Made by a program: the position numbers and the translations under genes
Shown: piece by piece, positions 12,058 to 63,585 of the stretch
How positions within the stretch are numbered: the first letter of the stretch is position 1
How the letters are laid out: every line of letters starts with the position of its first letter
Notes under the pieces: model-generated
Seen by the model: only the letters and a program-made list of their open reading frames with translations
Databases searched by the model: none
Told to the model about the DNA's origin: nothing
Assembly: GCA_951406725.2 (NCBI GenBank)
Contig: OX597816.1
Location: forward strand, 149,110,001 to 149,174,000
Length of the DNA stretch: 64,000 nt
Origin: Octopus vulgaris
Taxonomy: Eukaryota
Direction of reading: 5' to 3'

Positions 12058-12177
12058 TATTTAATTAAGATATCAGACTCTACACTTTTGTATTGAGTTC
12101 TTTTTTATCTTCTTCAATTTGACATTCGAATTTTTACCCGAATAAGGTTACCAAACCAAAAGAAGAAGGAAACAAAC

Positions 12178-12456
12178 CAAATTTATTTCTGCTGCCTGTG
12201 TCAGTTGGATACATTTTGATGTCGGTTGTGAAGCTTCAGCTGCCCGTTTTTGTCGCTTTTTAATTCTGTCTAGGGTTTTTCGCCTAGAAGTCTTTTCAGG
12301 AGTTTCTGTTGCTCGTATCAGTTGCATTCTGATTCTGTTTTTGGTCCTTCGTTCTGCAGTCTTCTCTGCCGTTTCTACTGCCCGCAAGCTTCGCATTCTT
12401 CTTGCACTGTCTTTCCGTCGTTGCTCAACACTCGTAGATCGTGATCGAGGCATCAT
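12178..12456 (-). CDS. Candidate alternative first exon: STPR-like 23-aa repeat basic DNA-binding domain (93 codons)
   Basis: ATG start. Two 23-residue units ETAEKTAERRTKNRIRMQLIRAT and ETPEKTSRRKTLDRIKKRQKRAA. Phase-0 donor TTG|GTTTGT at 12178/12177. Confidence 0.7.
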
Positions 12457-18714: not shown

Positions 18715-18885
18715 CTTAATCTCGCCAGAACGTTTCTGTCGTCTTCTCTTTACAGCTGTTTTTCTCATTTGTTCTAGGCGCTTCTCTCTTTCTTCTACAG
18801 TTTCTCTCTCCCTTCTGTCCCTTGCTCTCAAGGCATCTGCCGCACGACGCTCTTCGTCTGTAGCATATTTCCTTGGCCTTCCCAT
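18715..18885 (-). CDS. Candidate alternative first exon: AT-hook (MGRPRK) plus STPR-like repeat (57 codons)
   Basis: ATG start; GRPRK hook; ETVEEREKRLEQMR resembles the STPR unit start; phase-0 donor AAG|GTAACG at 18715/18714. Confidence 0.72.
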
Positions 18886-19227
18886 TAAAGGATCAGAAAT
18901 GTTCAGTTTGACAGAATTTTGATACGGCGAGGATACTAAGCAAGTTATAGATTCAATATTAACTCGATATTGACTGTTTATTGTAAAGAATGACTACAAA
19001 AAGAATAAATCGCTGATTCCTTGCTAGCATCTAAGTTAGCTTGTTTTGGGCACATACGCGCCGAATCAATGACAGGATGATAACAATGATGATGATTTTA
19101 ATATGTGAGTAGAAATTGACGAAACCAGCTAGCTGGTCCGACATTAAACATTGGAAATGGAGAAGATGGTAGCATTAGATGTGAATACTCTGGAGATGGT
19201 AGCATTAGATGTGAATACTCTGGAGAT

Positions 19228-21308
19228 GTGAATACTATACTCCAGAGTATCCTGGACTCAATATGGGCAGCATGTGCAGCATCAGTGCCACGTAAACAAA
19301 AAAAGAAGAACCGCCCCAAAAGGGCAATTTGGGAAACTTCAGCGGTCCGACTTGCCAGGAGGGAACGTCGGACTGCTGAACGGGAATACAGGTTGCATAA
19401 ATCAGACACCAACAGGAAGAAGCGGAATAAATCCTCCAACCATCTCAAGCAAGTGACAAAAAAAGCAGTGCTTGAATTTGAACAGTGCATAGCAGCCAAT
19501 CCTGACAGCAAGGTTTTCTGGAAATATGTGCACTCAAAGCAGAGACCTCACTCTCCAGTGGGCCCTCTTCACAACCCTCACACAAACCAGATCACTGACG
19601 ACCCCAAGGAATGCGCAGAACTCATTGCCGAGTGCTATGCAAACATATTCACTGTTGAAAGTCAAAATGTACCATCTTCACCATCACTAACAGCAAACTC
19701 CATAACAACTATGGAATTTACACCTGCAATGCTGCGACGTCACCTTCAAAATAAGCGCAACTATGCCTCCCCTGGTCTCGATGGAGTTACATACCTGCTT
19801 CTCAAACGTGGCAGGCACTTCCTTTTACACCAGCTTTCTATTTTCTTCCAGTACTGTCTCAACAATGGTGCTACTCCGGAGCAGTGGAAAACTGCCAGTG
19901 TCATTCCTCTGTTCAAAAAGGGCGACCGCACATCACCTGTCAACTATCGCCCAGTCAGTCTCACTAGCTGTATTGCAAAACTGATGGAATCGTGTGTCAG
20001 AGAAACACTCTGGAACTTCTGGAGCTCTCACAGTCTCATCCGACCCTCACAATATGGATTTGTCCCTAACTCCAGCTGCAGTGACCAGCTTGTCGAGTTC
20101 CTTGAGGACATTACTCAGATTACTGACAGTGGCTCATGGGTGGATGTTGTCTACCTTGACTTTGCTAAGGCTTTCAACTCTGTGCCACACAAAAGGCTTA
20201 TGGTGAAACTCTCTGCAATGGGTGTGGGGGATGACCTTTTTAACTGGTTGAAATCCTTCATCCTCAGCCGAAAGGAGGTAGTCACAGTTCTAGGACAGCA
20301 CTCTACACCATATGAGATGTCATCGGGTGTACCACAGGGATCTGTCCTTGGCCCCCTCTTGTTTGTGGCATACATTAACGACATAGATGCCAATTTAAGG
20401 AATGCCACAGTATTGAAATATGCAGACGACATCAAGCTGTACCTTGAAATCAAGAGGACAGATCCTGATGTCTACAACTCTTTCCTGCAATCAGACCTAG
20501 ACACAATGCAGCAATGGATCACAGACTGGCAACTGAAACTGGCTGTGGACAAGTGTACCACCATGCATTTTGGGAGAAAAAACCCTGCGTTCACATACTC
20601 CCTCCACAACACTGATATCAAGAAATCCTCTTGCGAGCGTGACCTAGGCATCACTGTCAGCAGTGATTTGCGTTGGTCAAAGCATATCTCTAAGATTGTC
20701 AGGAAGGCCGAGGGTGTCTTGGCATCACTCAGCAGGTCTTTTGTTAGCCGCTCTCCAGCCATCTATTTAAAACTGTATACAGCTATGGTACGACCACACT
20801 TGGAATTCGCATCATCAGTTTGGAACCCCTATCTTGCACAGAACATTGACCTCCTGGAATCTGTCCAGAGACGTGCAACCAAACGCATATCCTCCATCAG
20901 ACACCTACCATATTCTGAGCGCCTTGTTTCCCTGGGCATGGATTCACTGAAGCTCCGGCGTTTGGCGACGGACTTGGTAAACACCCACAAAGTTATCAAC
21001 CACCTCACCAACAACAACACTGAACACCTTTTTGATCTCCATGTGTCTAACACACGTGGACATGCCTACAAAGTCAGAAAACAATACAGCTCCCATGACT
21101 TTCGGAAACATTTTTTCACGCTCAGAGTTGCTGAAGCATGGAATAAACTGCCTGCGTCAGTTGTTGACTGCCATGACACTGCATCTTTTAAGGCCCTCAT
21201 GCTTTCCGAAATCCGCCGAAACTTCACCTGATTATATATACACTTTAGATGAGTTGTAGTGCACCTGAGCACTGTACACAATTATTATTATTATTATTAT
21301 TTTTATTA
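19228..21308 (+). mobile_element. 5'-truncated CR1/L2-group LINE with uninterrupted 667-codon RT ORF (19228-21231)
   Basis: NYRPVSLTS, QYGF, YLDFAKAF, GVPQGSVLGPLLF, YADD, TRGH...F..RV..WN.LP motifs; short 3' UTR and (ATT)n tail; no endonuclease domain. Confidence 0.95.
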
Positions 21309-23022: not shown

Positions 23023-24306
23023 TAAGGTGGTATCAAAAAATTCCCAGACTAGTTCTGTAGTGCATCCACAAGTCCCTGCTCACAGTTGTGTAGTGAGAGC
23101 TAGCAGTGTGCTAAGTAACATTGCTGTATTTACTTAACAAGTTGTGAAATTTATATTTTTGTGATCATGTGTTTGCTGTAGTCTGCAATTTTGTCATGGA
23201 GAGGAAGTTGCAGCAAAGAGCCAAAATGAAATTTTACATTAAACTTGGGAAGTCTGCTACAGAGACATTGAGCATGCTTCAGCAAGCTTGTGGCAATGAA
23301 GTAATGGGTTGTATGCAATGTTTCCAGGGGCCCAGATGCTTCAATAGTGGAAAAACTTTCCTGGAAGACGATGAGCAATCTGAAAGACCTGCCAGAAACA
23401 TCATCCCAGAAATATGCAGAAAATTCATCAGCTTGTGCATTAGGATCGTCAGAGGACTATCAACAACATTGCTGATGTTGTTGGTCTGTTGTATGGGTCC
23501 ATGCAGGCAATCCTAAAGCCTGAATTGAACATGCAGTGTGTCTCTGTCAAGTTTGTCCTCCACCTGCTGACCACTGAGCAGAAAGAACATGGCGTCAAAG
23601 TCTGTTAGGATTTCCGTCAGCATACCACTAATGATCCATCTTTTATATTGAGGGACATCACCAGTGACAAGAGTTGGGTCTGGGTATGACCCTCAGACAA
23701 AGCGGCAGTCATTGCAATGGAAGAGCTCTTCATCTCCATGACCAAAGAAGGTGTGACAGAGCTGCAGCTCAGTCAAGATCATGCTCATCGTTTTTTTCAA
23801 CATCTGCAGTACATCAAAAATTTGTCCCCCAGAGCCTGACCATCAATCAAGAATTCTGCTGTGACGTTTTGAAGCATTTGAGTGGCGACATTCAAGAAAG
23901 ACAACTGCATCTGTGGAAGGCAAAGAATTGGAATTTTCATAATGACAATGCACTCTGTCACTGAGCTCTCCTCACTCATGAGTTTCTCATCGAAAACATG
24001 GTATCACTTCTGTACCTGCTCTATTCACCAGACTTAGCACCTGTGGGCTCCTATTTCTTCCCCAAGATCAAAAGCAGCGCAAAGGTTGTCATTTTAACAT
24101 CACTGTCAAGGTCCACAGTGAATTGCAGAAGGTCCTCCACTCACAGAAAACGACTTCCAGGCTGGATTTCAAAAGTGGCAGGAATGCTTGGACCAGTGCA
24201 TTGCTGTACAAGGTGACTATTTCAAAGGAGATTATGTTAAAACTTAGGTAAATAAGTTATTTTTTATTAAGTATAATTAGTCCTGGAACTTTTTGATACC
24301 ACCTCA
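23023..24306 (+). mobile_element. Full-length degenerate mariner
   Basis: TA TSD, TIRs TAAGGTGGTATCAAAAA / TTTTTGATACCACCTCA; FYIKLGKSATET, HNDNA, YSPDLAP in broken frames. Confidence 0.9.
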
Positions 24307-26950: not shown

Positions 26951-27748
26951 TATGAGGGGATACCCAAAAGAAACCAGAATTTTGCAATATTTTATTCACT
27001 TAGCTTTACATGTTTACACTTTTATCGCCTTCAAAGTATTCTCCATTTGAAGCAATGCATGTCCTGGAACTCGTGCAAAGTGATGCCTTTTGACGCCTCT
27101 AACGTTTATTCTTCACCCCTTCCACATTCAAATTCTGTAGCACCAGCTTTTGTTACCAGTCATGACTTCCAACTGCTCTTTCAGTTCACAACACATATTC
27201 AGTTGTGACTGCTTTTGATCCTCTGTGAGTAACCAAAGCACAAACTTCGCTGTAACTCTTTTCATTTGCAATTCCTCACTCAAAATTCGTTGGAAGGAGT
27301 TCCAGGACACACCAATCATATCAACAAATTCATTAATTGTTTGGTAATGGTCCTCCAAGATCAGTTCATGAATTTTCATTTGTTCAGGAGGTCGACAGTC
27401 ATCTTGAATGAGGTTGGTCTTCAAGTGACAAGTGACTATTCCTGAAGCAAGGAAACCATTCATAAACTAGTATTTTGCTCTTGGCAGAGTCTTTGTCAGC
27501 TCTTTGAAGCACGACAACTGTTTTCCCCAGCAGAAAACAGAATTTCCCGGAAGCATGTTCTTTCATTTCAGCCATCGCAAAAATCAACAAACTGGGAAGA
27601 AGCACTGCAAAACAAAGATGCACTATGTGACAGTATGACCTCACTTGACACTACCAGTGAGCAGATTGATGCCTGAAGGTTGCATCAAGTTGTGGAACCC
27701 TCAACTACAAGTTTGTCCCACAGAGAAAGTTTCCTGTTACCACCTCAT
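26951..27748 (-). mobile_element. Internally deleted mariner remnant
   Basis: FCFLLGKT, FQRILSEELQMKRVTAKFV, TGNKSW transposase motifs. Confidence 0.75.
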
Positions 27749-31125: not shown

Positions 31126-32103
31126 TCATACTGGCAGTTGCACTGATGATAATTGTTTTCTGTTCCTTCCAGCTGTAAAATGTCCTGCAGGATACACACT
31201 TTTATTGCCACCAGATGTCGCCATGTTATCAAATGACTGAATTGTTATAGTTCGATTTTGTGGTTTAGAAGGGTTTTCTCTTACAGGGTTAGATGGGAAA
31301 CACATTTTCTTTTCAGTATGCAATGCAAATTCTAAGTTAGAATGTAAAGAGCTTTCAAATGTATTAGATTTTAACTTAGATGATGTTCCACGTGTCACAT
31401 TTGTTATTGCTTTGCTGTGTGTGGTATCTAACAATGGTAAAACAAATTCTGAAGTGGATGCATCCTTACAGTTCAGCATGGTGCTTCGTGTCTGAGAACT
31501 GTTCGAAACTGGAATGGATGAATAGAACTTACTATGCTCATATCTGCTTTCCTCAGGTTCCATAGGTTCATTCTTCACTGTGGGAGCCATGACAAAATTA
31601 CCAGAGGAATTGATATCTATGTTATCTAATAAGGCAACCTCAGAGTTGTTTCCAAACAATGTAACTCTATTTTCTTTGGGTAATAATTCAGCTCTTGAAA
31701 TCTTGTCATTAATACCACTGGATGATATTGAAAAGAAACGTGGAGAAAGCTGAACTGGTGTTGTAACATTTTGTGACACAGATACATTATCTGTCATTGG
31801 GTTGGATGCAACAAATGCATTAGTAGCTGTAATAGGTTGCTGATGTGTTGTATTAGGCAGTTGACTATCACACAGTTGTTCAAATTCTTTCATTTCCAAA
31901 CGTTTTGCAATGATTTTTAATTGATGTAAAATATTTAGATCAAGATCTAGAATCCCATTATACATATAATCAGCAAAAGCATCTAAGGCTTTTGTGCTAA
32001 CTTCCTGTGGTAAGTTAATGTGGAGAAAGTTCTGAGAGAGCATCTCTGCACCAAATACTGACAACAGTTTAGGACATACAGCAAATAAGACAACTTTATG
32101 TAC
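31126..32103 (-). CDS. BTB module 2, exon C (terminal coding exon)
   Basis: Acceptor TTTCAG|GTA; VHKVVLFAVCPKL...FADYMYNG; 978 nt to stop. Confidence 0.9.
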   Translation of the reverse strand, partial: VHKVVLFAVCPKLLSVFGAEMLSQNFLHINLPQEVSTKALDAFADYMYNGILDLDLNILHQLKIIAKRLEMKEFEQLCDSQLPNTTHQQPITATNAFVASNPMTDNVSVSQNVTTPVQLSPRFFSISSSGINDKISRAELLPKENRVTLFGNNSEVALLDNIDINSSGNFVMAPTVKNEPMEPEESRYEHSKFYSSIPVSNSSQTRSTMLNCKDASTSEFVLPLLDTTHSKAITNVTRGTSSKLKSNTFESSLHSNLEFALHTEKKMCFPSNPVRENPSKPQNRTITIQSFDNMATSGGNKSVYPAGHFTAGRNRKQLSSVQLPV

Positions 32104-33676
32104 CTGAAATATATAAAAAAAAAAGATCTTGAGATTTATAAAATAATTAATACCAGGGAAAATCTCTTAAAACATTTTTCACTTTTAACTATAAATCTTT
32201 TCTTTAGTCAGAGTATAGTTATAAGTAAATACTTTCATGCATAGATACCTTTAGTTTTGGTGTTGTAATTAAATTCTATAGAGCATATCTAAAAGGATAA
32301 GAATTGGCCTAGTTTCAAAAATGAAACGATAATTCTCTCTATGAATTCTGTAGTTCATATTTTGCCAGAGCTGTGTTACAAATAGTCTGAAAAAATTTAA
32401 AGGATCAAAATTTTTAATACAGCATTAGCACAAATTAGGTGACATAGCAACTGAAATGTCAGAATGTCTTCATGAAGTATGAAACACAATACATGATATA
32501 AGGATATTTTTATCTCAACTGAAATACTTTCTTAAACTTTTTCACTTTTTCCCCACCATCCCAATATTAAAATGTTTTTCATTATATCATTACCAGGCCA
32601 ATAGTTGAGTGCATTTGCCTCAAGGCTATAGGCATATAACAGACTTTTAAAGTAGTACAGATCAGGTTATATCAGTGTTTTTTTAAGTCAAAGAAAATAA
32701 GGAATGATTTTAAAAACAACAGCATGGAAAACGGACGTTAAACGATGATGATGATGAAATGGAACAGTCAATTTGAACACATGCACAACTTGTCCATATC
32801 CTTTTGTAGGTTTATTGAGCTGTTTGGGAAAATAATTGTTTTTTGAAAACTACTTACCAACTAAGGATTAGATATGAGAACTACCTGTAATAACCATACA
32901 GAAAATACGTGTTACTTCCCTTTAAATTCAGACTTAGATAGAAATTAGGTAAATATCGCCATTTCCACCAACTACAACTGAATATTTTATGAAAACTTCG
33001 CCCCAGAGAATTCAGAAATGTTCATCATCAACATTTTACATCCGAATTTCCATGCTGACATGGGCTAAATATAACCCACATAGGCTGGGTAGATTTAATC
33101 AATACTACTAGCCCTGGAGAGGATATCTGCAACATACACTGTATCAGTTTTTATTGAGAGTTAACACTCCCCTGGAAGCTTTGTTTGTGGAGTTCATGCA
33201 TCTTTCATTTTTCTTCTCACTTTTTTTTCTAGCATGAATTTTGCAGTTGGATGCTGTTCCTTTAAAGAAACTTCATTTTGGGTTTATGGTTTATAGATAC
33301 TTATCAATAAAATGTTGGAAAATTGTTTTACAATATTTTTTGGACTATTTACATATTTTTTAAAGATTTTTGTCTTGACAGCTCCATTGAAGACTTACAC
33401 TTTAAACCTTTTCTGACTCTTCAATTTGTAGAATTGTAGAAAATATATTTTAAAAAATAAATATTTTTGAACGCAAGTACTAGCTTCAAAGCATCACAAA
33501 CTCTTTAGGAAAATGGCTCTCTTTCATTATGATTGTTTTCAGTGAGCTTTCTGGTTTTTGTTCTAGCATTCTCAATTGAATTTTTTCAGGGTTATAAAGC
33601 TCAAAGAAAAACAGATATAGGAAAACATTAAAAAAGATTAAAAAATTAACATAATAAAGTCTTTAATTAAACTTAC

Positions 33677-33971
33677 CATCACTGTAGATAAACCATTGTC
33701 AATACTAGCATCACATAATTTTCCACTCTTCCATAGCAATGCCAGGCTGGACATTACATTTTTCTGATGATCAGCAAGAATAAATATTTTCTTCCCTTGA
33801 GGCTGTGGTATTTCAAAGGTCTTTGGTTGTGTAGTAGGTACTGGAACTGGAAAGGTAGAGAAATGAACTGGATCTGGCATATTTTCTGACTCCTCAACCA
33901 CACAGATAAGGTTTTTGATTGAAGGTTTCTGAGAATTTTCAGCCATCTTAGAGATATGACCAATATTTTGC
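33677..33971 (-). CDS. BTB module 2, exon B (LWKSGKLCDASI)
   Basis: Acceptor TTTCAG|G (phase 2), donor ATG|GTAAGT (phase 0), 295 nt. Confidence 0.88.
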
Positions 33972-34065
33972 CTGAAATTCATTGAGATAAAAATTATGAT
34001 AAATGCATGAACTCAACAGAAAATACTTGCATAGTAAGAAGCTATGACAAAATTTATTTAGTTAC

Positions 34066-34265
34066 CTGTCAGTAAAATCATTTTCTTGACAATTTTTCTT
34101 TAATTTCAAATTTTCTTCCTGAAATTCCTTGGGAAAAGTCTGCTTCTTAGGAATTTTGGCAGGTGGAGATGGAGGATGGTCACTGTCTGAGATAAGAACT
34201 GTAGCAGGAGAGCTAGGAGGTTGCTTTTTTTTGTTTAAATATAAGTTTTTATTTGATGATCCGGC
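34066..34265 (-). CDS. BTB module 2, exon A (AGSSNKN...PATVLISDSDHPPSPPAKIPKKQ...DFTDR)
   Basis: Absent from the ORF track because it has no start. Phase-0 acceptor ATTGTAG|GCC, phase-2 donor AG|GTAACT, 200 nt open, homologous to 63350-63585; contains no Met. Confidence 0.85.
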
Positions 34266-37212
34266 CTACAATAATAAAATAGATTCTTTAAGAACAGAAA
34301 ACAGGTTTGAACTTTTATGCAGAAAAATATCTCTACATTATGCAGAAAATGTCAAGTTTTATTAATTTCTAATGAAGTGAGAGAATATGACCTTAGATAA
34401 GCTTCATGAATCTGGTACAAACTAGCATCTTACTCAGAGTACAGCAATGTACCACTGATCAGTTGTGAATCAAAACCTTAGCCACAGGCTTGCACTTTGT
34501 TATAAAAGACAACAATTGTTTTTAGAGAAGAGTTCAAGTCTTAAATTATATTTTGATTACTAATTGTCAGACTCAAGTGAAACAGCTTGAGTCTGACTCT
34601 CAACTGTAAATATTTCACATCAATTACATTACTAATTCTCTTGCAAAAGGCATTGGTATCACACAATTCCTTTCCTACTACTCAACAAATTCTAGTATTT
34701 TATCCCTTTGCTGGATACTGTAGAATAACAGTTAGTAGCTAAGAAAGCTTGTCTATGACTTTGCTTAATTTTGTTGTAGCTATTTCACTTCATCAACATT
34801 TTAAAGTTTCTGAAAAAAGGCGTGAACATCATAAAATTTCTTTCTCATAGTCATACAAATCTGAAGCCACACACCCGAGTAAGAAATCCTTATTTATAGC
34901 TAAAGAGTAGTACAGCTTATAAAATAACCGAGCATAATCTGACTCTACAGACCTACCAGTGATCAGTTTACTTGAATTCATGAACAATCAGTTACAGAAA
35001 CATAATATATTTCATCATCAACAATAAGGCATGGTTTCAATTGCCACATGACTTTTTCAATCGGTAATTTTCATCAAGTTAAAATTTGTCATAACTACAC
35101 CTGCAACTGTACAATATGGTTTGTTTATTTGTAGCAGCTTAACACCTCTTTCAACCAGTCCTGCCTCAAAATTTATTATCCAATGGTTTGCCAAAAATAG
35201 TTAGGATTATACTTGCAAGATTTATTTTTTTACAAAAGGGCTAAATGGTTTTAAGCATATTGATGTTATGAACATGAAACACATGGTTCTACATCAATAA
35301 TCTAGCATACAAATACAAAAAGTATATAAGTACATAGACAGAGAGAGAAAAGTGCAAACATAGCTGTGTGGTTAAGAAGTTCACTTCCATGGTTTGGAAT
35401 TCAATCCAACTGCATGGACTGGGCAAGTATCTCTCTATAGCCAACCAAAGCCTTGTGAGTGGATTTGGTAGATGGGAACTGAAAGAAGCCCATTATATGT
35501 GTATGAGTTTGAGTCATGTCTTGGAATTGTAGGCTTACCAATACCTTGTGAGTGAATTTGGTTGATGGAAACTGCATGGAAGCTTTTACATCTGTATACA
35601 TGCACATATAAGTATGTGTGTGCACACAGTTATGTTTACGTCTTGTCATTTGACAATTGTGTTTATTGGTGTCCTGATAATTTAGTAGTGAGACAAAAAG
35701 AGATGAATGATTGCAAAAGTTTGATGGTGACATCAGTTTACAATTAGAGCACAATAGCAGGACAAGAAGACACAAACACACACACATATTATGCTTGCTC
35801 TCTATGCACACATGAGCTGGATGGTTCAACAGGATCTGACAGCTTGCTTCCTAACCACATGGTTCTGGCTTCGGTCCCATGGCGTGGCACCTTGGGCAAG
35901 TGTCTTCTACTGTAGCTTCAGGCCAACCAAAGCTTTGTGAGTGGATTTGGTAGACAGAAACTGAAAGAAGCCCATTGTGAGTGTGTGTGAGAGGGTGTGT
36001 TTGTGTTCGTCCCCTACTACTGCTTGACGACCAGTGTTGATGTGTTTATGTCCCTGTAACATAGCAGTTTGGCAAAAGAGACTGATAGAATATGTACCAG
36101 ATTTAATAAAAAAATTACTGGGGTTGATTCATTCAACTAAAAATTTTTAGGGCAGTGCCCCAGTATGGCTGCAGTCTAATAACTGAAACAAGTAATAGAA
36201 TACACACACACAAACAAACATAATAGGCTACATTCAATTTCCTTCTATCAAATCGACCTACAAACTTTTGTTTAGTCTGAGGCTATTCCAGAAGATACTT
36301 GCACAAGGTGTCACACAGTGGGACTGAACCCAAATTCACATTGTTGTGAAGCAAGCCACTTAACAAGAGTCATACCTGCACGCACACACATTTCTTCCAG
36401 AGAGTGACAAGTTCGAAAGAAGTTGTGTGTGGCCACTTAGAATAAAGAAATCAAAGATAAGTCTGAGAGTGAATAAATCCATAATTGTTTGTCTGACAAA
36501 ATATATTTTTCGAACTAACGATAGAGCACCTAATACACTTTGTAAAGTGGTTGGCGTTAGGAAGAGCATCCGACCAAAGCAGACAACAGAGCTTGGCACA
36601 GTCCTCTTGCTTGCTAGCTTCTGTCAAACGGCACAGATCACGGCAGTATGGGAAACGGACGTTAAACGATGATGATAATGTACGTGTGTGTACATGCACA
36701 CACATACACATCCATTTATTATTATTACTATTATTGTTATTATTATTAATCGGCAGAAGTTACAATGTGAGTCAAGGGCCGGGCGTTTCATGATGTCATT
36801 TACCAAACTGACAGTTTGCTAAGTAGCATGCACGAATCTCTCGAGCCTAGAGTCATTTCGTAACTCCTACTGATTAATATTAATAAATAATAATACTATA
36901 TATATAATACACGCATGCATATATATATATATATATATAAAATCATCATAACACCACATCCACGCATACAAAGAGTGTGTCTATATAAACTATTCTTGTG
37001 TGTTTGTATAAACAGACACTAGTTAACTAGTATATTTGGGTTTTAGAACAGATTCGTAAAATGAAAACTAACCTAAAATGAATGTCTGAATTAGATTATT
37101 TATTGGTTAATAACACGCGTGTTGATCGATTACCAACAGACCTGTTAGATATTGACGTGTCTCAAATCGATGCAACGTAGCATTTATTGACAAATATGGT
37201 GATAGTACTTAC

Positions 37213-37650
37213 CAAGTTCGCAATTTCTGCTCTCTTTTTAAATTTATGAAACCAACCTTGACTAGCCTTAAATGGACGAATTTCGTAATCTGAACTACGG
37301 GGGAAGCTTTTCTTCACATGTTCATAAATCTCTAGGGCTTTTTCACGAATAACTTCCATATTTACTTGGTCCCCCTTCTTTTGCTTTTCCTTTATCCACA
37401 TTAACAAACGCTTCTCAACTTCGACTATGAAAGACCTGTTTTTAAAGACTCTGGTTGATTTATCAATTACCTTCACAGATTTTAGTCTTTCTTTTTGGGC
37501 ACATATGGTTGCAACAGTCGAAGGGGGAAGCCCGTATTCAGCACAAAGAACTCTTCTTTTAAAGCCTTGTTCGAATTTGTTGATAATTTCCTGTTTTTGT
37601 TGGATCGTTATGACTTTGCGCTTCGTCTTTGTTTTGGGTTTAGATGACAT
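37213..37650 (-). CDS. Candidate alternative first exon: CENP-B/pogo-Tigger bipartite HTH DNA-binding domain (146 codons)
   Basis: KRKVITIQQKQEII...YGLPPSTVATI (CENP-B N-terminal/psq-type HTH) and EKRLLMWI...IREKA...FKASQGWFHKFKKR (Tc5-type HTH). Consensus phase-0 donor TTG|GTAAGT. No DDE domain follows. Confidence 0.85.
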
Positions 37651-38182
37651 GACTATTCGAAAATTTATTTTGCAAAACAGAACAGAGACAAATTTTCAAT
37701 GAGAGTTAAGTGGGGGGAAAAAAGCCTTAATTTTAACTCCAGTTACGTGAAGTTAACATTCAAGTAAAAACGTGATCTCGTACGGCTCTCGTTAATGTAC
37801 AATAAAGTGATGAACGTTAAACGAATTGTCGCGTCATGAAGAACTTGTTAACCGAAGTAGGAAAGAAACACACACTCACATATACATCAACATTCTGAGA
37901 AAACCGTTAAAAGAGATGGATAGTAAATGTCACTATTCCTATTCACATAAATAAACCTTATGAAAGAGGAGGAGTTTCGTCTCTAACTTTTGTCGTGAAA
38001 ATATGGGTGTAGGTTATATTTGACACTTCGTAAACAAGCCAACAGACGTAATATTTTTTGTCAAGACTGTATCACCATTACGAGTTACACACGATCATGT
38101 ATTGATTCACAACTCAAAACAATTTATAAAAACAAAATACTATTTCCATGCCCTAAAATACAAGCATTGTATAAACAATAAT

Positions 38183-39652
38183 AGGTATTGATTCTTTCAC
38201 CCGCACGATTTTTACTAAGAAAAAAAAAACTCGGATTTTTTGCGTGGACTCAAGTACCCTGACCTCCTAATATACTGCAAACTCCTTTTTTTTTTGTTCG
38301 GAAAAAAAAGGATGGGGGGAAAACCGGACCTCCCACCTACCCACCCACATCCCGAAATCACTGGAAATTTTTTTTCATTGAGTAAATTCCGTTGACCTAA
38401 TATGCTACAAAACCTTTTTTGGGGTCAGGAAAACGGGGTGGGGTGGAACCCTCGGAAATGTCACCCTCCTCCCCATTTTCAAATATGTTTTGCTATTTCT
38501 TTCTTTATCCATAATTTTAGATAACATTTTGCAGAAATACGATTTCGAGAGAGTGTGGATTACATTAGATTGAAAATTCAAAAAAGTTTGAAATGAATAA
38601 GTGAAAATGCAGAGGTTATAGAAGTTAGTGGTAACGAAGTGCGGAGAGATAAACGATGAATTCATCTTTAGAAAAACACGTTAGAGTTTTTGCATGTATG
38701 AGTGAAACGGAACAAAGTATAATATTAACAAAATATCTTAAAAATCACTGGATATAATACATATAATAATCCCGAATAGATTTTCCTGGCTTGCCAGTCT
38801 TGTCAAACCGTCCAACCCATGCCAGAATGGAAAGCGGACATTAAACGATGATGGTGATGATGATGTATAATGATATATATATATATAATTATGACAGATT
38901 GTTATCCATTCAATGTTTAAGTAAACTTCGTCACCCTCTCTCTCTCTCTCTCTCCACATAAAAATGAAACAAATTTCGGCGCCAAAAATTGCAAAGGGAA
39001 AATCTATTTTTGGTGCCAAAATGTGTTTCATTTTTTTGTGTGGAGAAAACGTATTTCTGCAAAATATTATCTAAAATTAAGAGTAAAGAAAGAAATAGCA
39101 AAAATTATTTGAAAATGAGGATGAGGTGAAATTTCCGAGGATCCCACCCAACTCCGTTTTCCAGACCCAAAAAAGGGTTTTGTAGCATATTAGGTCACCG
39201 GAATTTAGTCAATTAAAAAAAAAAAAAAATTCCCAATGATTCTGAGATGGAGGATCCGGTTTTCCACACACCCTTTTTTCCAAACAAAAATAAGGGGTTT
39301 GCAGCATATTAGGAGGTCAGGTTACTTGATTCCATGCAAAAAACCAGAGTTTTAGTTTTTCTTAGTGAAAATCATACAAGTGAAAAGATCAATGGAGGTG
39401 GGAGGTGAAATTTCTGGACCCAAAAACGGTTTTGTAGCATATTAGAAAGTCACCAGAATTCATTCAATGGAAGAAAAAATTTCCAATGATTCCGGGATAT
39501 GGAGGGAGGGGTGACCGGACCTCCTTCCTTTTTCCGAATAAAAATAAGGAGTTTGCAGCATATTAGGTGGTCAGGGTACTTAATTCCATGCAAAAATTGT
39601 GAGGGTTTTTTTTCTGAGTGAAAATCGTGCGGGTGAAAGGATCAAAATCTAC
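38183..39652. mobile_element. Long-TIR foldback-like DNA element with nested SINE fragment
   Basis: Imperfect inverted arms (TTTCACCCGCACGATTTT ... AAAATCGTGCGGGTGAAA); duplicated subterminal block on the right; SINE tail near 38785-38865. Confidence 0.75.
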
Positions 39653-39759
39653 TCAATAATATCAAGATGTTTAAAAGAATCATCTACATGAATACATGTG
39701 GAGTGGTACATGTGAACATATTATCCTTATTTAGCTGTATATTGTGTTTTTTCACCTAC

Positions 39760-40110
39760 TGAATAACAGAGAGCATATCCAATTGGAGATTTGTCAGGTC
39801 TCTTACATTTAGAAGCCTTCAGACATCTGCATAAATTCTTATGTTGTCTTTGATGAAGTCAGTGATGTCATTAAAGTAAATTATGAATAGAAGGGAACCC
39901 GATATTGTGCCTTGTGGGACTCCACAAATGACTCTTACTGAACTTGATCAAACATCATTGATCACCACATGCCGAGTATCGTTCACCAGGAAGCACTCAA
40001 TCCACTTAATAATTTCTCTCAGACTACAATTTTGAATTGTTTCTCTAACAGGATGCTGAGATCAACCTTGTCAGAGGCCTAGCTGAGGCCAAAGTACATG
40101 ACCTCTGCTT
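39760..40110 (-). mobile_element. Decayed LINE RT fragment
   Basis: GVPQGT...LLFIIYFNDI and YAD traces on minus strand. Confidence 0.65.
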
Positions 40111-40479
40111 TGGAGCAGATATATTGTTGTAGTGAAAATGGTACTCCCCTTCCCATGTGACAAAGTGGTATGATAGACCACTATAAAGTCAGTCGTTGTA
40201 GGAGGTCAGTAATAGAAGAGTCATTGTATGAGTTCTCAGTTGGAGTTGGTATCAGTCACGTGTTACATAGACATTGAAAAAAGTTTTTTTCATGCAAACA
40301 ACATTGAAAAATTTTTCATGTGGAAAAATTAAAAACTTGACACAGGAATAACAAACATTTTTGTTGTACATATTTTACAAAAAATCCATAAAATTATGGG
40401 AAACTTTTGCTCGACTAAAGGCGGTGCTCCAGCATGGCCGCAGTCAAATGACTGAAACAAGTAAAAGAGTAAAAGAGTA

Positions 40480-41645
40480 AAGGGTCTAGTTGAGTTGCAA
40501 AAACAAGAACAACAAGTGTTACATCAACAACTGCTACAACTAATTAAGTTAGTAACAAAACTGGAAAATACATTTTCGCCAGACCAAGCAGCAAATTCAA
40601 TAAATGAATTTAAATATGACCCAAAAGAAGGAGTCACCTTCGATGCATATTACCAAAGATTTGAACAAATTTTTGAAAAATAATGCCAAGACTGGATGGA
40701 CAAAATGAAAATGTATCTAATTCTGAGGAAACTGGCAATGACAGAGCATACTAAATACTGTAACTTTATACTGTCTAAAAAAAAGTTTCTGACATAAATT
40801 TCCCGGACACAATTGACATTTTATGTAGGATGTTTAGTGAAAAAACATCATTGTTCAACACACATTGGAAGTGTTTGAACACCGAGAAAAGAGATGCCGA
40901 AGACTTTACCACACATGTGGGTAGAAAACTGGATAAACCAACTCCAGACTTGTTCAAGTGTCTGATTTTTGCTCAGGGACTTACTGCTAAAAAGGACGCA
41001 GAAGTCAAAATGAAAATTCTCACAAAGCTGGAAATGAACCAGGATATAACTCACCAGAAACTGCCAGAAGAGTGTGATATAATATTAAAAATAAGGCATG
41101 ACACAGAAGAAATCCAACGCAGAGATTGTTTACAAATAAAACCAGTGTGGAAGAGTCAGATGGCTAAAGAATTTCACAAAAAACATGATATATAACAGGA
41201 GATAAGCCTATGTATGGCATGCTTTTTTGAAAAGAGTGTTTGTTCAAAAAAGTAAAGTGTTTTCATTGAGGGAATACAGGACATATTAAATCGCACTGCA
41301 GAACTAAGATGATGAAAAACTGGACCAATCAAAAAAAATAAATAGTTTGCCATCAGAGAAAAAAATTTGTACAACATTGAAAATTCATCAAGGTGAGAAT
41401 CGAAACCACTAGTGTCAAAATGCAATTAGACATGAGTAGTGACATCACCATCATAAATGAAGAAACATGGCAACAAATCAGTAAGCTGAAATTATTTAAA
41501 TCAAATAAAGTAACATATGGTGTTACAGGAAAGAAATTATATTTCATCGGTGAATGTATTTGCAATGTTACTTTTCGAGGTGAAACAGAAAGGACAATCA
41601 GTTATGTGTTGAAAAAAATCACTAAACCTATTTGGCACAGAATGC
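40480..41645 (+). mobile_element. Gypsy LTR retrotransposon gag-protease remnant
   Basis: FKYDPKEGVTFDAYYQRFEQIF, FKCLIFAQGL, and protease-like LDMSSDITII; several stops and frameshifts. Confidence 0.8.
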
Positions 41646-42479
41646 ATGGAGCAAAGCAACTGGGGGAAGGAGCAAAGCAACTTACAGGCTCTCTGAGACC
41701 AATGAGATTCATGCCATTAGTTTTCCTCTGGAATACTATATGTGATGCATATGGACAAGACCAGCTGTGTAAAGAAGTGCTAATCTCTAACTGTGAAGGG
41801 AACCTATGAAAGAGGTAGACCCAGAAAGAAATGGGACAAGGTAATGGAGCACGATCTTCGAATGCTGGGATTCATGGAGGTAATAACAAGTGACAGAGAC
41901 CTTTTGTGACATGCTGTGCTTGAAAAGACTCATCAAGCCAAGTGAAATTATAGTCGTGGCTGTTGCTGGTGTCATGTAAATGGCACCCATGAAATTGTAA
42001 TTGCGACTGTTGCTAGTAACATGATATTCAAATGTTGGGCCTCACAGAGGTGATGAAAAGTGACTGAGACCTTGATGATATGCTGTGCTTGAGAAGACTC
42101 ATCAAACCAAGTGAAACTGTAGCTGTGACCATTACCAGTGTCATGTAGATGGCACCCATGAAATCGTAGTCACAGCCATTACCGGTATCATGTAAATGGC
42201 ACTCATGCCAGTGGCACGTAAAAAGCACCCGTTACACTTTTGGAGTGGTTGGCATTAGGAAAGGTGCCCAGCTGTAGAAACCATGCCAAATCAGACTGGA
42301 ACCTGATGCAACTCTCCAGCTTACACAGTTCCAGTCAAACAATCTAACCCATGCCAGCATGGAAAGCAGACATTAAATGATGATGGTGATGATGAAGTTA
42401 GTCAAATAGTCAGAGATTAAGAGAAATTTATGGATGTATAACATAGTGGTCAATTGGACATTCTTATGAGCTATAGATC

Positions 42480-44319: not shown

Positions 44320-47300
44320 CTACAGAATGACAGCAAATGCAATGTTGAGCTCCTGAAGAATCTGCATGTAATCAAGCTATATGCATTGCACTTACAGAAA
44401 CACATCTATCTTCAGGCATAAATGATGTGGAGATACACATACCAATGTATGCTATCTTCTGTAAGACAGAAGAAAAAGAAGTCACAGTGGAGTTGCAATG
44501 TACATCCGCAAAGTTGTCATACTATTAACCCTATTATTGAACTGAAACTCAGTGTGTGACACACTCATAGTACATCTAAAACAACTTGATATAGTGATAT
44601 GCACACTATATTGCCCACCTGTTGCCTCAAATCATGATGGAAAATTTGAGGAAAGCCTCAGTGCAATAAAAGAAGTACTAACACAATTGGATTAATGCAC
44701 TACTATATTCCTGATGGGTGATTTCAACTTCCCCAACATCAGGTGGCCTGAGGGCAATATAACCCCAGGAATGATGCACAAAGAGTGAAATCAACAAGAA
44801 TCTCAACCTGACCTTATGAGAAAGCTATTCATGGAGCAGATCATACTCTCTTCAACCAGGCACAAAAATATCCTGGACCTCTGTTTAACAAACAATGTGG
44901 AAATTATCCACAATGTAAATATATCAGTCGATATTCTCAGACCATAATATGATAGAACTGACAATGTATGGCCTGGAATTAACTAAAGATAAACTCTGCA
45001 CAGATGACGCTCACACATTATCCAGCCTAAATTTCTATGAGTTTGACTGGAAGTCACTTGAAAAACACACACTCCAGCAAGACTGGCCTAAAAGCCTCTC
45101 TATGCAAGACATAGATATGAAACTCAATAAATTCATGTCAATAATGTGAGCCATATGCATTAAATATCAGGTCATCCCATAAGCTCTGTCCGAATTTTGA
45201 ATAAAGAAAACAAGTGATCAAATGTTATATTTAATTGAAATTTAATCAACGTAATTTCCTTGATTATCTATGACTTCATGACTTCTTTCCATCTATTTAC
45301 AAGCTTTTAAATCCCATCAATGTAAAACTCTTTTGGTTTCAAAGCGAAGAACTCTGAAATGTCAGTTTCGACCTCCTCCTGGCTTGCAAAAGTTATGTCC
45401 CCCAAATGATTCTGTAAACTACGAAACAAATGGTAGTCTGAAGGAGCAAGGTCGGGAGAGTAAGGTGGATGAGGAATTTTTCCCAACCAAGCTTTTCAAT
45501 CTTCTGTGATGTGATCTTTGCAGTGTGGGGTCGCGCATTGTCCTGATGAAACATCACTCCTTTTCGATTAACTAAAGCTGGTCTTTTTTTTCTTCAAAGC
45601 TTGGTTCAAACACTAATTGCTGACAGTAGACTTGAGCATTGATTGTTGCATTAGATGAAAACAATTCAAAGTGAATTACTTCTTTGCAATCCCACCAGAT
45701 ATTGAGAAGAACCTTTTTCCCATGAAGGTCCCTTCTCGGTTGTGGTTGAGCTTTTTCCCTTTTACCAAGCCACTGTTTACGACATTTAATATTTTGATAG
45801 AAGATCCATTTTTCGTCACCAGTCACAAGTCTATCCAAAAAGGGTGAAAAGTGTTCATGAGAATGGAAAGAAGAGCAGATGGCAACTCGGGTTTGCAGTT
45901 GCTTTCAGACAATTCATGAGGCACCCAGTTTCCAAGTTTAGGAACCTTTCCAAGTTGCTGAAGATGATGATGAACAGTTGTATTGTTTGAACTAAGCTTT
46001 ATTGCCAATTCTTCAACTGATAATGCAGGATTTTCTTCAAGCAATGCCTCAAGGAGCTTATCATCAAACTCAACTAGACGTCCTGTTTGATCTTCAACTT
46101 CAAGGCTGAAATCTCCACCACTGAATTTTGCAAACCCTCTGCTGCAAGTTCTTTCATTCAAGCATTCTTTCCCATAAACTGAGCGTATGTTTCGAGTTGC
46201 TTTGGCTGCAGAGTTTCCTTTTTTTGTACTCATAAAGCATTATGTGCCTCAAGTGCTCTTTGGATACTTCCATGTTAGAAAGGGTTTTAATCAAAGAAAT
46301 TTTAATTCTATTATTCTGTAAAATAATATTTAATAAGTTTAAATGTACACAAATGCATAAAAATAATTTTTAATTCCATTAGACATTCTAAAATACTATT
46401 AAATTTCATTCAAATTTAAAAAAGGTAAAATCAGACAGAACTTATGGGATGACCTGATATATTCCAGAGAAGAGAGCCAATACACAAAAAAACATTCCCC
46501 AAGACAGGAGAATACTCATGTTGCAGAGAATAAAGATCTTGAATAGTTTAAACAAACACCTTAATGACAGCGTGAAATCCCACTTGACAGAGGAGCTCTT
46601 CGAGAGACAAAATAAATTCAAACTCTCCCATGAAAAAGAGAAACCTGGGCAGTCGAAAATATAAAAAAGAAATCCTAAAGCCTTCTACACTTTGGTAAAG
46701 GAGTCTGCCTCAGTACGCTATGAGATAAAAAATGGCTCACTAATTGCAGACCTGGGGAAGATAAGTAAAGCACTAAATAAACAATTCTGAAGTGTTTTCA
46801 CTTCTCCACTGGAAAATATGCAAACAAACAAGCTGAAGGAGTTTTCGAATGTAATCAATCTATTCGGAAAAGAGGCAACCATCGATTACATCAACATAAC
46901 AGAAGAGGATGTAATATCGACCATTGATGAGATGAGATAAACTCAGCAACAGGCCCAGATGGACTCGCAGCTGTTCTCTTAAAGACATGTGAAAAGGCTC
47001 TTGCAAAGTCACTGTAGATACTCTTTAGAGTTTCTTTGCATGTGACCAACTTCCCAACATGATAAAAGAGGGTATATGCCCTGTCCATAAAGGAGGGAAC
47101 AGAGCAGATGCTAAGAACTACAAGCCCATCTCTCTGACCTCACATGTTAGCAAGGCAATGGAATGCATTGTCAGAAAAAGGCTGATAACGCTCCTAGAAG
47201 AAAACAACCTTCTCACAAACATGCAACATGGCTTCCGTCCAGGGAGGAGCTGCCTCACACAGTTGCTGCAGTACTTTGACCGGGTACTGAAGTAACAACT

Positions 47301-50338: not shown

Positions 50339-50713
50339 TTTGTTCGTTTGAAATATTTCCATTTGTCTCCATATCCTGTTTGGATTTTCGTTTTGGGGTA
50401 GGGAACTTGCTGTTTCTTGGGGGAAAGCTGGTGTACAATTCTCAGTTATTGTTCTCGCAACTTCTGTGTTGTTAGCTCCTGCTGTAATTTGTTGTATTGT
50501 TTTGAGAACAACGTTTCTACAGGCATCTTGTGGATGAGAATGTGGTGGTGGATCATACTGCAGAACATCATCAATTGTTTTGAGTCTTGCAGCGCATGTT
50601 TTTCTTTCTTCACATTTCCAGTATGTAATATTATTTTTCTTCTTATCAACAGTATAAGCGTACCCATTATATAGTAATTTCCTGCCGCCACGTTTAGTAA
50701 GAGTGAATTCCAT
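50339..50713 (-). CDS. Candidate alternative first exon: FLYWCH zinc finger (125 codons)
   Basis: MEFTLTKRGGRKLLYNGYAY...YWKC-x5-C...HSH is the FLYWCH pattern. Phase-0 donor AAA|GTAAAC at 50339/50338 (weaker consensus); the ORF beyond it reads as AT-rich intron. Confidence 0.8.
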
Positions 50714-61535: not shown

Positions 61536-62600
61536 TCAAGTAAGACCATCTGTTTTATATAAACCTATATTTTTGACACTGGTAACTTGTGATGATGATA
61601 ATGGTAAACTGTCCCCTCCTGCTGTAAAAAGTCCTACAGGATAGACACCTTCATTGCTACCAGAAGTCACAATGTTGTCAATTGACTGAGTTGTTATAGT
61701 TCGATTTAGTGGTTTAGAAGGGTCTTCTCTTATGGGACTGGACTGAGAACACATTTTTTCTACAATACATGATACAGGGGATAAATCAGAAACTAGAGAG
61801 CTTTCAAATACATTAGATTTTAATTTAGACGTTCCTTGCAATACATTTGTAGTGTTGCTATCTGTGGTGTCTGAAAATGGTAAAACAAATTCTGAAGAGG
61901 ACACAACCGTAGAATTCAAACCGGTACCTGGTATCCGAGAACTGATTGATACTGGAGTAGATGTGTAAGACTGATTATTCAGTTGACCATACCTGTCATC
62001 TTCAGGCCCTACAGGTTCAGTTTTCACACTGGGAACAATAACAAAACCACCAGAAGAATTGCCACTTTTACTAGCATCTAGTGAAGCAACCTCAGATTCC
62101 TGTCCAAAGACAGCTGCTGTATCTTTCTTAACTTGTGCTAATTCAGCCTCAGATATCTCTTGTTTAACATCAATGACTTGTGTAGTGACAGATGGAGTAG
62201 AGTGAGATGAAACTGATGTGATGGATGATGAAGGCAGAGATGGTTGAACTGTTGGAACTGTAATACTGGGTGGGTTTGATAGAATGGTCTGCATCTGGCT
62301 GAGATCACCAAATACAGTAACCGTTGAAGCTGGTTGATGAGGTATTGTGCTTGGAAGACGACTATCACACAGTTGTTCAAATTCTTTCATGTCCAAACGT
62401 TTTGCAATGATTTTTAACTGATGTAAAATATCAGGATCAATATCTAATAGCCCATTGTACATATATTCAGCAAAGGCATTTAAAGCTTCTGTGCTAACTT
62501 CTTCAGGAAAGTTCACTTGGAGAAACTTGTGAGAGAGGATATCTGTACTAAATACTGACAACAGTTTTGGACACACAGCAGACAGGACAACTTTATGCAC
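61536..62600 (-). CDS. BTB module 3, exon C (terminal coding exon)
   Basis: Acceptor TTTCAG|GTG; VHKVVLSAVCPKL...FAEYMYNG; 1065 nt to TGA. Confidence 0.92.
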   Translation of the reverse strand: MHKVVLSAVCPKLLSVFSTDILSHKFLQVNFPEEVSTEALNAFAEYMYNGLLDIDPDILHQLKIIAKRLDMKEFEQLCDSRLPSTIPHQPASTVTVFGDLSQMQTILSNPPSITVPTVQPSLPSSSITSVSSHSTPSVTTQVIDVKQEISEAELAQVKKDTAAVFGQESEVASLDASKSGNSSGGFVIVPSVKTEPVGPEDDRYGQLNNQSYTSTPVSISSRIPGTGLNSTVVSSSEFVLPFSDTTDSNTTNVLQGTSKLKSNVFESSLVSDLSPVSCIVEKMCSQSSPIREDPSKPLNRTITTQSIDNIVTSGSNEGVYPVGLFTAGGDSLPLSSSQVTSVKNIGLYKTDGLT

Positions 62601-62958
62601 CTGAAACACAAACACAAGGAATTGATTAGATAGGAGGGAAATATATGAACGGGAAACAGAAAACATAAAAAAGTAAAACCATTTGCATCTCTTAGAAATA
62701 AAAATACATTCCTTGGATCCTATATGGTTTTATAAAGTATCAGTATTGCAAATAAGTTAATTCAATAAATCATATTGATTTCCTTCAAGAAAAAGGTCAA
62801 GTCCCAAAGGAAGAACTTGATATTCTAATATTATTATCTTTGGAAGATTAGTCTGATGGAAAACATGCATTCTTCATTTGTTTCATGAAATGTTCTTTAA
62901 ATAGTCAGTAAATTAATTTGTAGCCAGAGAATATTAATGTTAAAAGCAATATACCTAC

Positions 62959-63262
62959 CATCACAGTAGATGAGCCATTACCAATACCAGCATCACACAA
63001 CTTTCCACTTTTCCACAGAGATGCTAGATTGGACATGACACAACGCTGATGATCAGCAACAACAAATATTCGTTTTTCTCGTGGTCGAGGTTTTTCCACA
63101 GGCTTCGGTTTGGGTTCACTTATTTGAATTGGTGGAGCTAACACTTGAACAGGCCTTGTAATATTTTGAGAAACCTGGGCCACACTCATATGCTGCTGGA
63201 CTGGCATTTGAGCTTGTAGTGTTTTTGCAGCCATCTGAGATACCTGAGTGTTAACCATTTGT
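62959..63262 (-). CDS. BTB module 3, exon B (LWKSGKLCDAGI)
   Basis: Acceptor TTTCAG|A (phase 2), donor ATG|GTAGGT (phase 0), 304 nt. Confidence 0.9.
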
Positions 63263-63349
63263 CTGAAATTAAAATTTACATTTTAGAAGATAATCACAAG
63301 TGATGTTCAAAATTAAGAGGCGAAAAGACCAATTAATCATCATACATAC

Positions 63350-63585
63350 CGCCGGTCATCAAATCGACGATTTTCGAACCTCCGTTCCTGGAAACGCTGC
63401 TCTTGGAAGCGTTGCTCATCAAAGCGTCGATCATCAATTTGTTTTTTCTGAATTTTTGCAGGTGAAGGTTGAGGAGGTGAATCATCTGGAATGAGCACTG
63501 GTGCAGACGAGACAGTGGCAGCAGCAATCTTTTTACGCCTAGGGTTCTCAGGCTTTCCGGAATATACTTGATTTGAAGGTCCTGC
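63350..63585 (-). CDS. BTB module 3, exon A; its upstream exon(s) probably lie beyond the window
   Basis: Phase-0 acceptor TTTACAG|GCA, phase-2 donor CG|GTATGT, 236 nt, no Met. Confidence 0.87.

Follow-up and report, generated by a model that had tools for sequence, protein, structure and literature searches.

An HTH exon at the head of a BTB gene

The window analysed here, 64,000 nucleotides of the Octopus vulgaris genome, holds members of a tandem BTB gene family, whose features given below lie on its minus strand. We focus on BTB2, and in particular on the coding part of an alternative first exon (37213..37650), which opens with an ATG at 37650 and stays in frame for 438 nt (146 codons) to 37213, ending in phase 0. 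The first-pass annotation had read this segment as an intact bipartite helix-turn-helix (HTH) of the pogo/Tigger type, cut a few residues after FKKR by a perfect donor, with no catalytic remnant or terminal inverted repeats (TIRs) noticed, and this reading of the segment was confirmed. Two Pfam domains exceed their curated cut-offs—CENP-B_N at residues 8-56 (E 4.3e-9) and HTH_Tnp_Tc5 at residues 77-144 (E 8.5e-15)—and residues 10-140 can be aligned to the CENP-B DNA-binding domain (chain 1hlv_A). FKKR occupies residues 137-140, and six residues later the frame meets the donor TTG|GTAAGT in phase 0; with 12 GTAAGT per 26,000 minus-strand bases, the chance of finding one within the 10 in-frame slots past the domain is about 0.5%. 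Immediately upstream, 37651..38050 comprises 5' UTR and CpG-rich DNA (CpG o/e 1.32) that probably functions as a promoter.

Traces of a transposon around the exon were sought in several ways. Three pogo ORFs served as queries, one of them full-length and taken from this genome (L020), the other two partial; between 26 and 52 kb of the window they matched the HTH, everything else having E >= 0.36, and no DDE remnant was found. Of the 103 inverted pairs at 34266-40500, the 25 longest include no TIR pair around the exon—those that extend across it are AT-rich or microsatellite matches, and long pairs lie either wholly upstream (38182-39651) or inside intron repeats. A DNA search of the genome (G000; very common words skipped) returned one match, the exon itself; the many near-identical, TIR-flanked copies named at the outset as refuting evidence did not appear. 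Other matches in the genome, seen at the protein level, are 25-49% identical and often carry stops, and many decayed Tigger-like HTHs are present (150 of 635 candidates scored in both cases). Compared with an active or non-autonomous pogo/Tigger transposon, then, the locus has the HTH; DDE_1, enclosing TIRs, and near-identical copies were not found.

Several other elements occur nearby. A foldback element with several long inverted arms (38182-39651) begins 0.5 kb upstream of the HTH ATG; it was considered as a source of TIRs for the exon and ruled out because both arms lie upstream. The neighbouring DNA transposons had been called decayed, which stands for the one copy that was read, a mariner at about 45300-46240 (-) with stops and frameshifts (three frames read). 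By eye, this segment and those at 19120-21228 (+), 23148-23513 (+), 27131-27466 (-), and 40779-41809 (+) are decayed transposon fragments, the kinds present in the window being mariner-like copies, a LINE reverse-transcriptase fragment, and gag/pol-like fragments. Elsewhere in the genome, L020 (C23:19.219 Mb) is a TIGD-like ORF of 622 aa, intact throughout, in which an acidic repeat insert separates the HTH from the DDE region; it is a candidate domesticated gene. Further long open HTH frames occur at C13, C17, C21, and C3.

Probable splicing of the HTH exon onto shared BTB exons

Downstream of the donor, an intron of 2947 nt (34266..37212, GTAAGT...TAG) rich in high-copy repeats and without a DDE remnant separates the HTH exon from three shared exons: exon 2 (34066..34265), a basic/Pro-rich linker with no Pfam match; exon 3 (33677..33971), encoding further linker and the N-terminal part of the BTB domain; and exon 4 (31126..32103), which carries the remaining BTB domain and a Ser/Thr-rich tail to the stop, as placed by Pfam, the splice model, and the database isoform. 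The HTH had been reported to lie 2.9 kb upstream of the first BTB exon (BTB2 exon A); the distance was right, and the next exon is in phase, but the exon at 34265-34066 is linker and the BTB domain begins in the one after it. Joining 37650-37213, 34265-34066, 33971-33677, and 32103-31126 at GT-AG sites yields a 636 aa HTH-linker-BTB protein, which agrees letter for letter with database isoform P0021 (LOC115209904 isoform X1 in records of Octopus vulgaris and O. sinensis).

Read evidence covers 33600-37950 and comes from runs classed as RNA-like or DNA-like by guess. In 3/3 RNA-like runs (studies P1, P2, and P4), the HTH contig stops at 37212, followed by 29 letters that do not match the intron, and the DNA-like run X17 is continuous over 36950-37950, through the donor. 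Contigs of the same three RNA-like runs contain the joint between exons 2 and 3. Depth arithmetic points, strongly but indirectly, to the joint with exon 2: in run X10, the bin 34184-34329 holds a depth of 122 above the exon-2 contig, equal to the HTH depth of 4.07 x 30, and a control bin was reproduced to within 1 in 3/3 runs. Overall, the HTH contig attains 18-52% of exon-2 depth (18% in X10). Contig ends, depth arithmetic, and database models together make it very likely that the HTH exon serves as an alternative first exon and is joined to the 34265 acceptor.

An AG lies 2 nt before the ATG, and its use as an acceptor would make the HTH an internal or C-terminal exon of BTB3, in a pipsqueak-like arrangement. 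This candidate was rejected, as HTH contigs begin at 37705-37736 and cross the AG unspliced; database isoforms starting at ATG 37650 also oppose an internal exon. A search with the HTH exon for longer homologous proteins gave 0/607 at E <= 1e-10, a count that is uninformative because the isoform falls within a cluster whose representative is a FLYWCH protein.

A second first exon at the same acceptor

This FLYWCH form corresponds to a second alternative first exon (50339..50713), 13 kb upstream of the HTH exon, which encodes a FLYWCH zinc finger (125 aa, Pfam E 1.8e-13) and ends in phase 0 at the donor AAA|GTAAAC. Database isoform X2 (P0001) starts with this exon (50713-50339), and in database models both first exons use the acceptor at 34265. 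Both isoforms also exist in O. bimaculoides (P0023 with the HTH, P0002 with FLYWCH). In runs X1 and X5, the exon-2 contig begins exactly at 34265; since the HTH exon and the intron both end in G, a break at this position implies a second partner that does not end in G, and the FLYWCH exon, which ends in A, fits. Depths of 21.6 and 13.6 are left in these two runs after the HTH share is removed, although in X10 the depth arithmetic leaves no residual for a second partner despite the low HTH share in that run. The FLYWCH junction to 34265 is thus strongly supported by database models and the contig break, as is the conclusion that HTH and FLYWCH exons are the two alternative first exons of one BTB gene. 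We regard the core of this result as very likely—an intact, DDE-less HTH with an in-phase donor, spliced to 34265 to give the 636-aa protein, with the FLYWCH exon joined to the same acceptor.

The DNA upstream of the two first exons is rich in CpG (o/e 1.32 for HTH, 1.19 for FLYWCH), and that before exon 2 has a value of 0.0. Judging from this composition, a separate CpG-rich promoter probably lies before each of the first exons, such that promoter choice would select the DNA-binding domain.

Conservation and origin of the HTH exon

In the O. bimaculoides orthologue P0023, which has the same junction, the HTH exon differs at 5/146 residues, the BTB domain at 3/120, and linker plus tail at 32/370; the contrast between HTH exon and linker/tail (Fisher p 0.038) is modest and drawn from close species. 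Identity is thus 96.6% for the HTH exon vs 97.5% for the BTB domain. In a further protein, P0054, frame and donor position are preserved, and 13/146 residues differ. Single-copy status, identity to P0021, three RNA-like runs ending at the donor, and the O. bimaculoides orthologue support the earlier proposal of a domesticated, spliced exon that lacks the DDE domain. The proposal needs extending: the fusion was already catalogued, and the exon is one member of an alternative-first-exon system found throughout this BTB family.

To place the exon, we built a tree of 27 rows—the HTH exon, 3 O. bimaculoides isoform starts, 19 Tigger-like loci of the genome, and 4 HTHs of the BTB cluster. In this phylogeny, one of the checks proposed at the outset, the HTH exon clusters with Tigger-like copies of the genome (97/92) and away from the HTHs of the BTB3 array upstream (described below), on a long branch (0.88); the tree program flagged long-branch joins elsewhere in the tree. 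The exon is 27-32% identical to two BTB3-array HTHs found by tblastn. No donor transposon family was found; the closest DDE-bearing relative among 1.84 billion representatives (P0072) is 45% identical. In a BTB tree, the nearest relative is a paralogue with a FAR1-like first exon (95/96), which means that two duplicates carry different first exons. We consider it fairly probable, from these relationships, that the HTH exon derives from a Tigger-like transposase inserted ahead of the constant exons, independently of the BTB3 HTH exons.

The strongest competitor to this origin is duplication from an older host exon, either an array exon or a TIGD-like host gene, rather than direct descent from a transposon. 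The long branch, the lack of a close transposon relative, and the presence of the intact L020 ORF would all fit, and array exons do duplicate, as shown by the basic-repeat exon at window position 18885, of which the BTB3 array holds a 67% copy. On the contrary, the grouping with Tigger-like copies, the low identity to the two array HTHs, and the FAR1-like first exon of the sister BTB gene all point away from a host source, and we regard duplication as unlikely. Direct derivation from a Tigger-like transposase remains our preferred reading.

A BTB family with an array of variable first exons

BTB exon 4 has 23 matches in the genome. Of these, 12 form a tandem row at C3:148.965-149.173 Mb, another 5 lie at C3:151.27-151.38 Mb, and the remaining 6 fall outside both clusters. 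In other paralogues, BTB is joined to THAP, STPR, CG-1, FAR1-like, FLYWCH, DUF3504, or HTH. The most elaborate case is BTB3, whose constant BTB exons (61539..63282, approximate bounds from ORFs) and first constant exon (63343..63585) lie within the window, the latter serving as acceptor for a variable-exon array just past its edge (G000:C3:149,174,000-149,355,000, ~180 kb; L021-L023, L039-L040, L061-L074). We scanned all ATG ORFs of at least 66 aa in the 190 kb upstream of BTB3 against Pfam at E <= 0.01. A DNA-binding or DUF3504 match was found in 27/88 sense ORFs and in 0/68 antisense ORFs; 19/27 exceed the curated cut-off. The sense matches comprise THAP (11), Tc5/CENP-B (4), Tc1/IS630-type HTH (3), DUF3504 (3), Brinker (2), Psq (2), FLYWCH (1), and zf-C17orf113 (1), and none of the 27 matched a DDE family in Pfam. 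THAP, FLYWCH, Psq, and Brinker domains occur in host factors too, and these family counts do not equal captures. Some array exons also resemble duplicates of one another.

Every variable exon found is on the sense strand and starts with an ATG. Upstream CpG o/e reaches at least 0.75 for 23/27 array exons vs 45/335 background tiles (p 5e-13), and shared exons have values of 0-0.44; the Psq exon at C3:149354295, which is internal (it follows another exon in XP_014782194), has 0.0. The array is tiered, with shared exons at C3:149173585, 149197473, 149268119, and ~149322250, and, by eye, the second of these completes the C-terminus of several THAP-like starts that stop short. Strict GTRAG donors are present in 15/27 ORFs; their phases include phase 0 in 13/13 for tiers 1, 2, and 4, and are phase 1 in 2/2 for tier 3, matching the acceptor.

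Database isoforms reflect the same layout. Isoform numbers of O. bimaculoides LOC106877732 run up to X36 (15/32 cluster members listed), and, among fetched isoforms read by eye, 19/20 distinct domain-bearing starts map to the array at >= 70%; the start P0036 had no match within the 314 kb of the genome examined. Counting annotated exons without a Pfam match, the array has about 30 variable exons. The same set of shared exons recurs in Argonauta P0012, and in Acanthosepion P0014 a similar start of the constant exons follows a different N-terminal part that has no Pfam match, so that the array layout is likely older than the octopus-cuttlefish split.

Variable upstream exons are found beyond BTB3. 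The first exon of BTB1 (12175..12456; isoform P0043) is a basic repeat, and another basic-repeat ORF (18628-18885) with a candidate phase-0 donor, 67% like the BTB3-array ORF at C3:149190032, is possibly a second first exon of that gene. Neither the exon at 12456 nor that at 18885 matches Pfam, and the label STPR-like was given by eye, from the relatives P0070/P0071, which match STPRs. Nine further tandem BTB copies at C3:148.96-149.11 Mb (L024-L038) have mostly basic-repeat upstream ORFs (STPR-like by eye), and one copy there has a FAR1/ZSWIM3-like first exon. The second cluster (C3:151.26-151.38 Mb; L041-L053) contains 5 BTB genes and upstream ORFs of HTH, STPR-like, THAP-like, Brinker-like, and transposase-like kinds, some of which are paired with BTB in isoforms P0060, P0064, and P0070; P0068 retains DDE_3. 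A different Octopus BTB locus (LOC106879774 / LOC115220336) has FLYWCH and DUF3504 isoforms (P0119, P0124). Outside cephalopods, a fish database record (Scleropages formosus P0083) holds an independent Tigger HTH-BTB isoform, and in the scallop Argopecten irradians, isoforms X4 and X5 (P0131 and P0180, with adjoining accessions) join an N-terminal BTB to a C-terminus of either C2H2 fingers or a Tc5 HTH; to judge by these proteins, the locus may be organised like mod(mdg4).

Predicted BTB dimers and a proposed mechanism

The BTB homodimer model scored 0.81, against 0.00 for the best of 3 controls, with contact agreement between runs of at least 89% and pLDDT of at least 84; the mark is reached by 17/29 eukaryotic homodimers and 0/30 single chains, and a pass may reflect memory of solved BTB dimers. 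The following sequence of events would account for the observations. A Tigger-like transposase would have inserted ahead of the constant exons and shed all that lay behind an in-frame donor; splicing of the HTH exon to 34265 would then produce HTH-linker-BTB, with the FLYWCH exon using the same acceptor, and promoter choice would pick the first exon and hence the DNA-binding domain. Given a predicted BTB dimer, isoforms sharing this domain could pair unlike DNA-binding domains, and the proteins would regulate chromatin in a sequence-specific manner, their most plausible roles being those of repressors or architectural factors acting at sites derived from transposons. The model-based part of this proposal—pairing of unlike domains and a putative regulatory role on chromatin—is somewhat favoured. 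The best explanation overall, which we hold to be probable, is that a single-copy Tigger-type HTH exon, part of a swappable first-exon system, would aim a predicted BTB dimer at its own sites; the array, in turn, likely lets one predicted dimeric scaffold reach many DNA targets by promoter choice.

These proteins might instead serve in transposon defence, with the captured domain bound to transposon ends or to the cognate transposase and the BTB domain bringing a Cullin-3 ligase or blocking transposition. BTB domains are established Cullin-3 adaptors, the best PDB match of this one is the Kelch-family structure 6n34 (E 2.6e-7), and the menu of domains parallels DNA-transposon superfamilies. 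Yet BCL6/ZBTB BTBs match too, Pfam finds no BACK or Kelch domain in the exons, and the HTH exon has been kept although the cognate Tigger copies are old, many of them broken; we therefore think defence rather unlikely and retain chromatin regulation as the favoured role. Less probable still is a mod(mdg4)-style arrangement in which variable exons are picked by splicing or trans-splicing from a few promoters: introns are long and some array exons, such as the Psq exon, are internal, but the uniform sense orientation and ATG starts, the CpG-rich DNA before most array exons and its absence before the known internal one, and the extension of HTH contigs unspliced into upstream DNA all favour promoter choice. 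That the HTH exon is a recently exonised transposon fragment, spliced but functionless, is very improbable, for although its isoform is a minority of exon-2 depth and decayed Tigger-like HTHs abound in the genome, it is single-copy in DNA with at most 49% protein identity to any scored copy, and thus not recent, is intact in O. bimaculoides and P0054, and is conserved nearly as well as the BTB domain.

Implications

One locus bearing ~30 alternative first exons of unrelated transposon-type DNA-binding families on a single constant BTB module would offer a natural series for studying how transposase domains are domesticated, including donor recruitment, the origin of promoters, and turnover among octopus, argonaut, and cuttlefish. 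The array is also a testable candidate for cephalopod transposon control and regulatory diversity. More tentatively, and with the balance somewhat against it, coleoids may possess a 'transposase-capture platform', that is, BTB genes repeatedly trapping DNA-binding exons, each with its own promoter. If so, its sources would include pogo, Tc1/IS630, P/THAP, Mutator, hAT, Crypton, and Helitron-type elements, and the outcome would be a library of transcription factors, protocadherin-like and combinatorial through dimers, that may act as KRAB zinc fingers do in tetrapods—transposon control turned to gene regulation.

Comparison with known systems

CENP-B, TIGD1-7, and JRK combine a bipartite HTH and a DDE-derived region in one long exon; the octopus exon has an HTH of the same type without the DDE-derived region. 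In clustered protocadherins and UGT1A, variable first exons stand in tandem, have a promoter each, and are spliced to constant exons; these variable exons are paralogous duplicates, whereas many exons of the octopus array encode unrelated domains. In fusions of host and transposase sequences, the host domain is usually upstream and each gene has one transposase. Features of such fusions seen here are an in-frame splice between transposase and host parts (contig ends and database models) and orthologous conservation. KRAB-transposase, SETMAR, POGK, and F-box-Tc1 HTH (PMC12062965) likewise splice a transposase DNA-binding domain to a host effector domain. In the account of KCTD1 isoform b in PMC3212892, an upstream exon derived from a Crypton transposon (DUF3504) creates an alternative isoform of a BTB gene, as here, where the BTB3 array includes three DUF3504-like exons; KCTD1b, however, involves one captured exon, a KCTD-type BTB, and jawed vertebrates, in contrast to an array in octopus.

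The HTH-BTB fusion itself is not new, as the supplement of PMC10027918 (2023) already catalogues the O. bimaculoides orthologue (XP_014782240 / LOC106877745) as 'HTH-CENPB-BTB', and taken alone the HTH exon is an ordinary, already listed transposase capture. That study reports BTB in Octopus CENPB and THAP factors, regards BTB as the portion of transposon origin, and spreads LOC106877732 over 11 rows in separate factor families, so that published counts change, isoforms of one locus having been entered as separate factors. Its main text has 0 occurrences of 'isoform' or 'transcript variant', and the passages at hand describe neither alternative first exons nor an array; the same holds for a first-exon array of this type in the passages of PMC12111275 on oyster BTB clusters. 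What stands out here is the array, in which first exons of transposon type share one constant BTB; it is implicit in database isoforms, and we found no description of it in openly licensed PMC and bioRxiv literature.

The closest parallels are mod(mdg4), lola, and broad, which, according to passages of PMC4528330, combine a constant BTB with 20-30 or more variable DNA-binding exons, like the octopus locus. In these genes, that source places the BTB N-terminally and describes variable exons that are 3', partly trans-spliced, and encode zinc fingers. The variable exons of octopus are instead 5', CpG-flanked, all in sense orientation, arranged in nested tiers, and drawn from at least 8 Pfam domain types; the count of antisense variable exons (0 among 68 ORFs) bears on trans-splicing indirectly at most. 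The mod(mdg4)/lola type has a BTB of the Tramtrack group; in the PDB, the octopus BTB sequence matches Kelch and ZBTB types. As read from its sequence, the octopus architecture is the mirror image of mod(mdg4) and lola, set out in a protocadherin-like layout.
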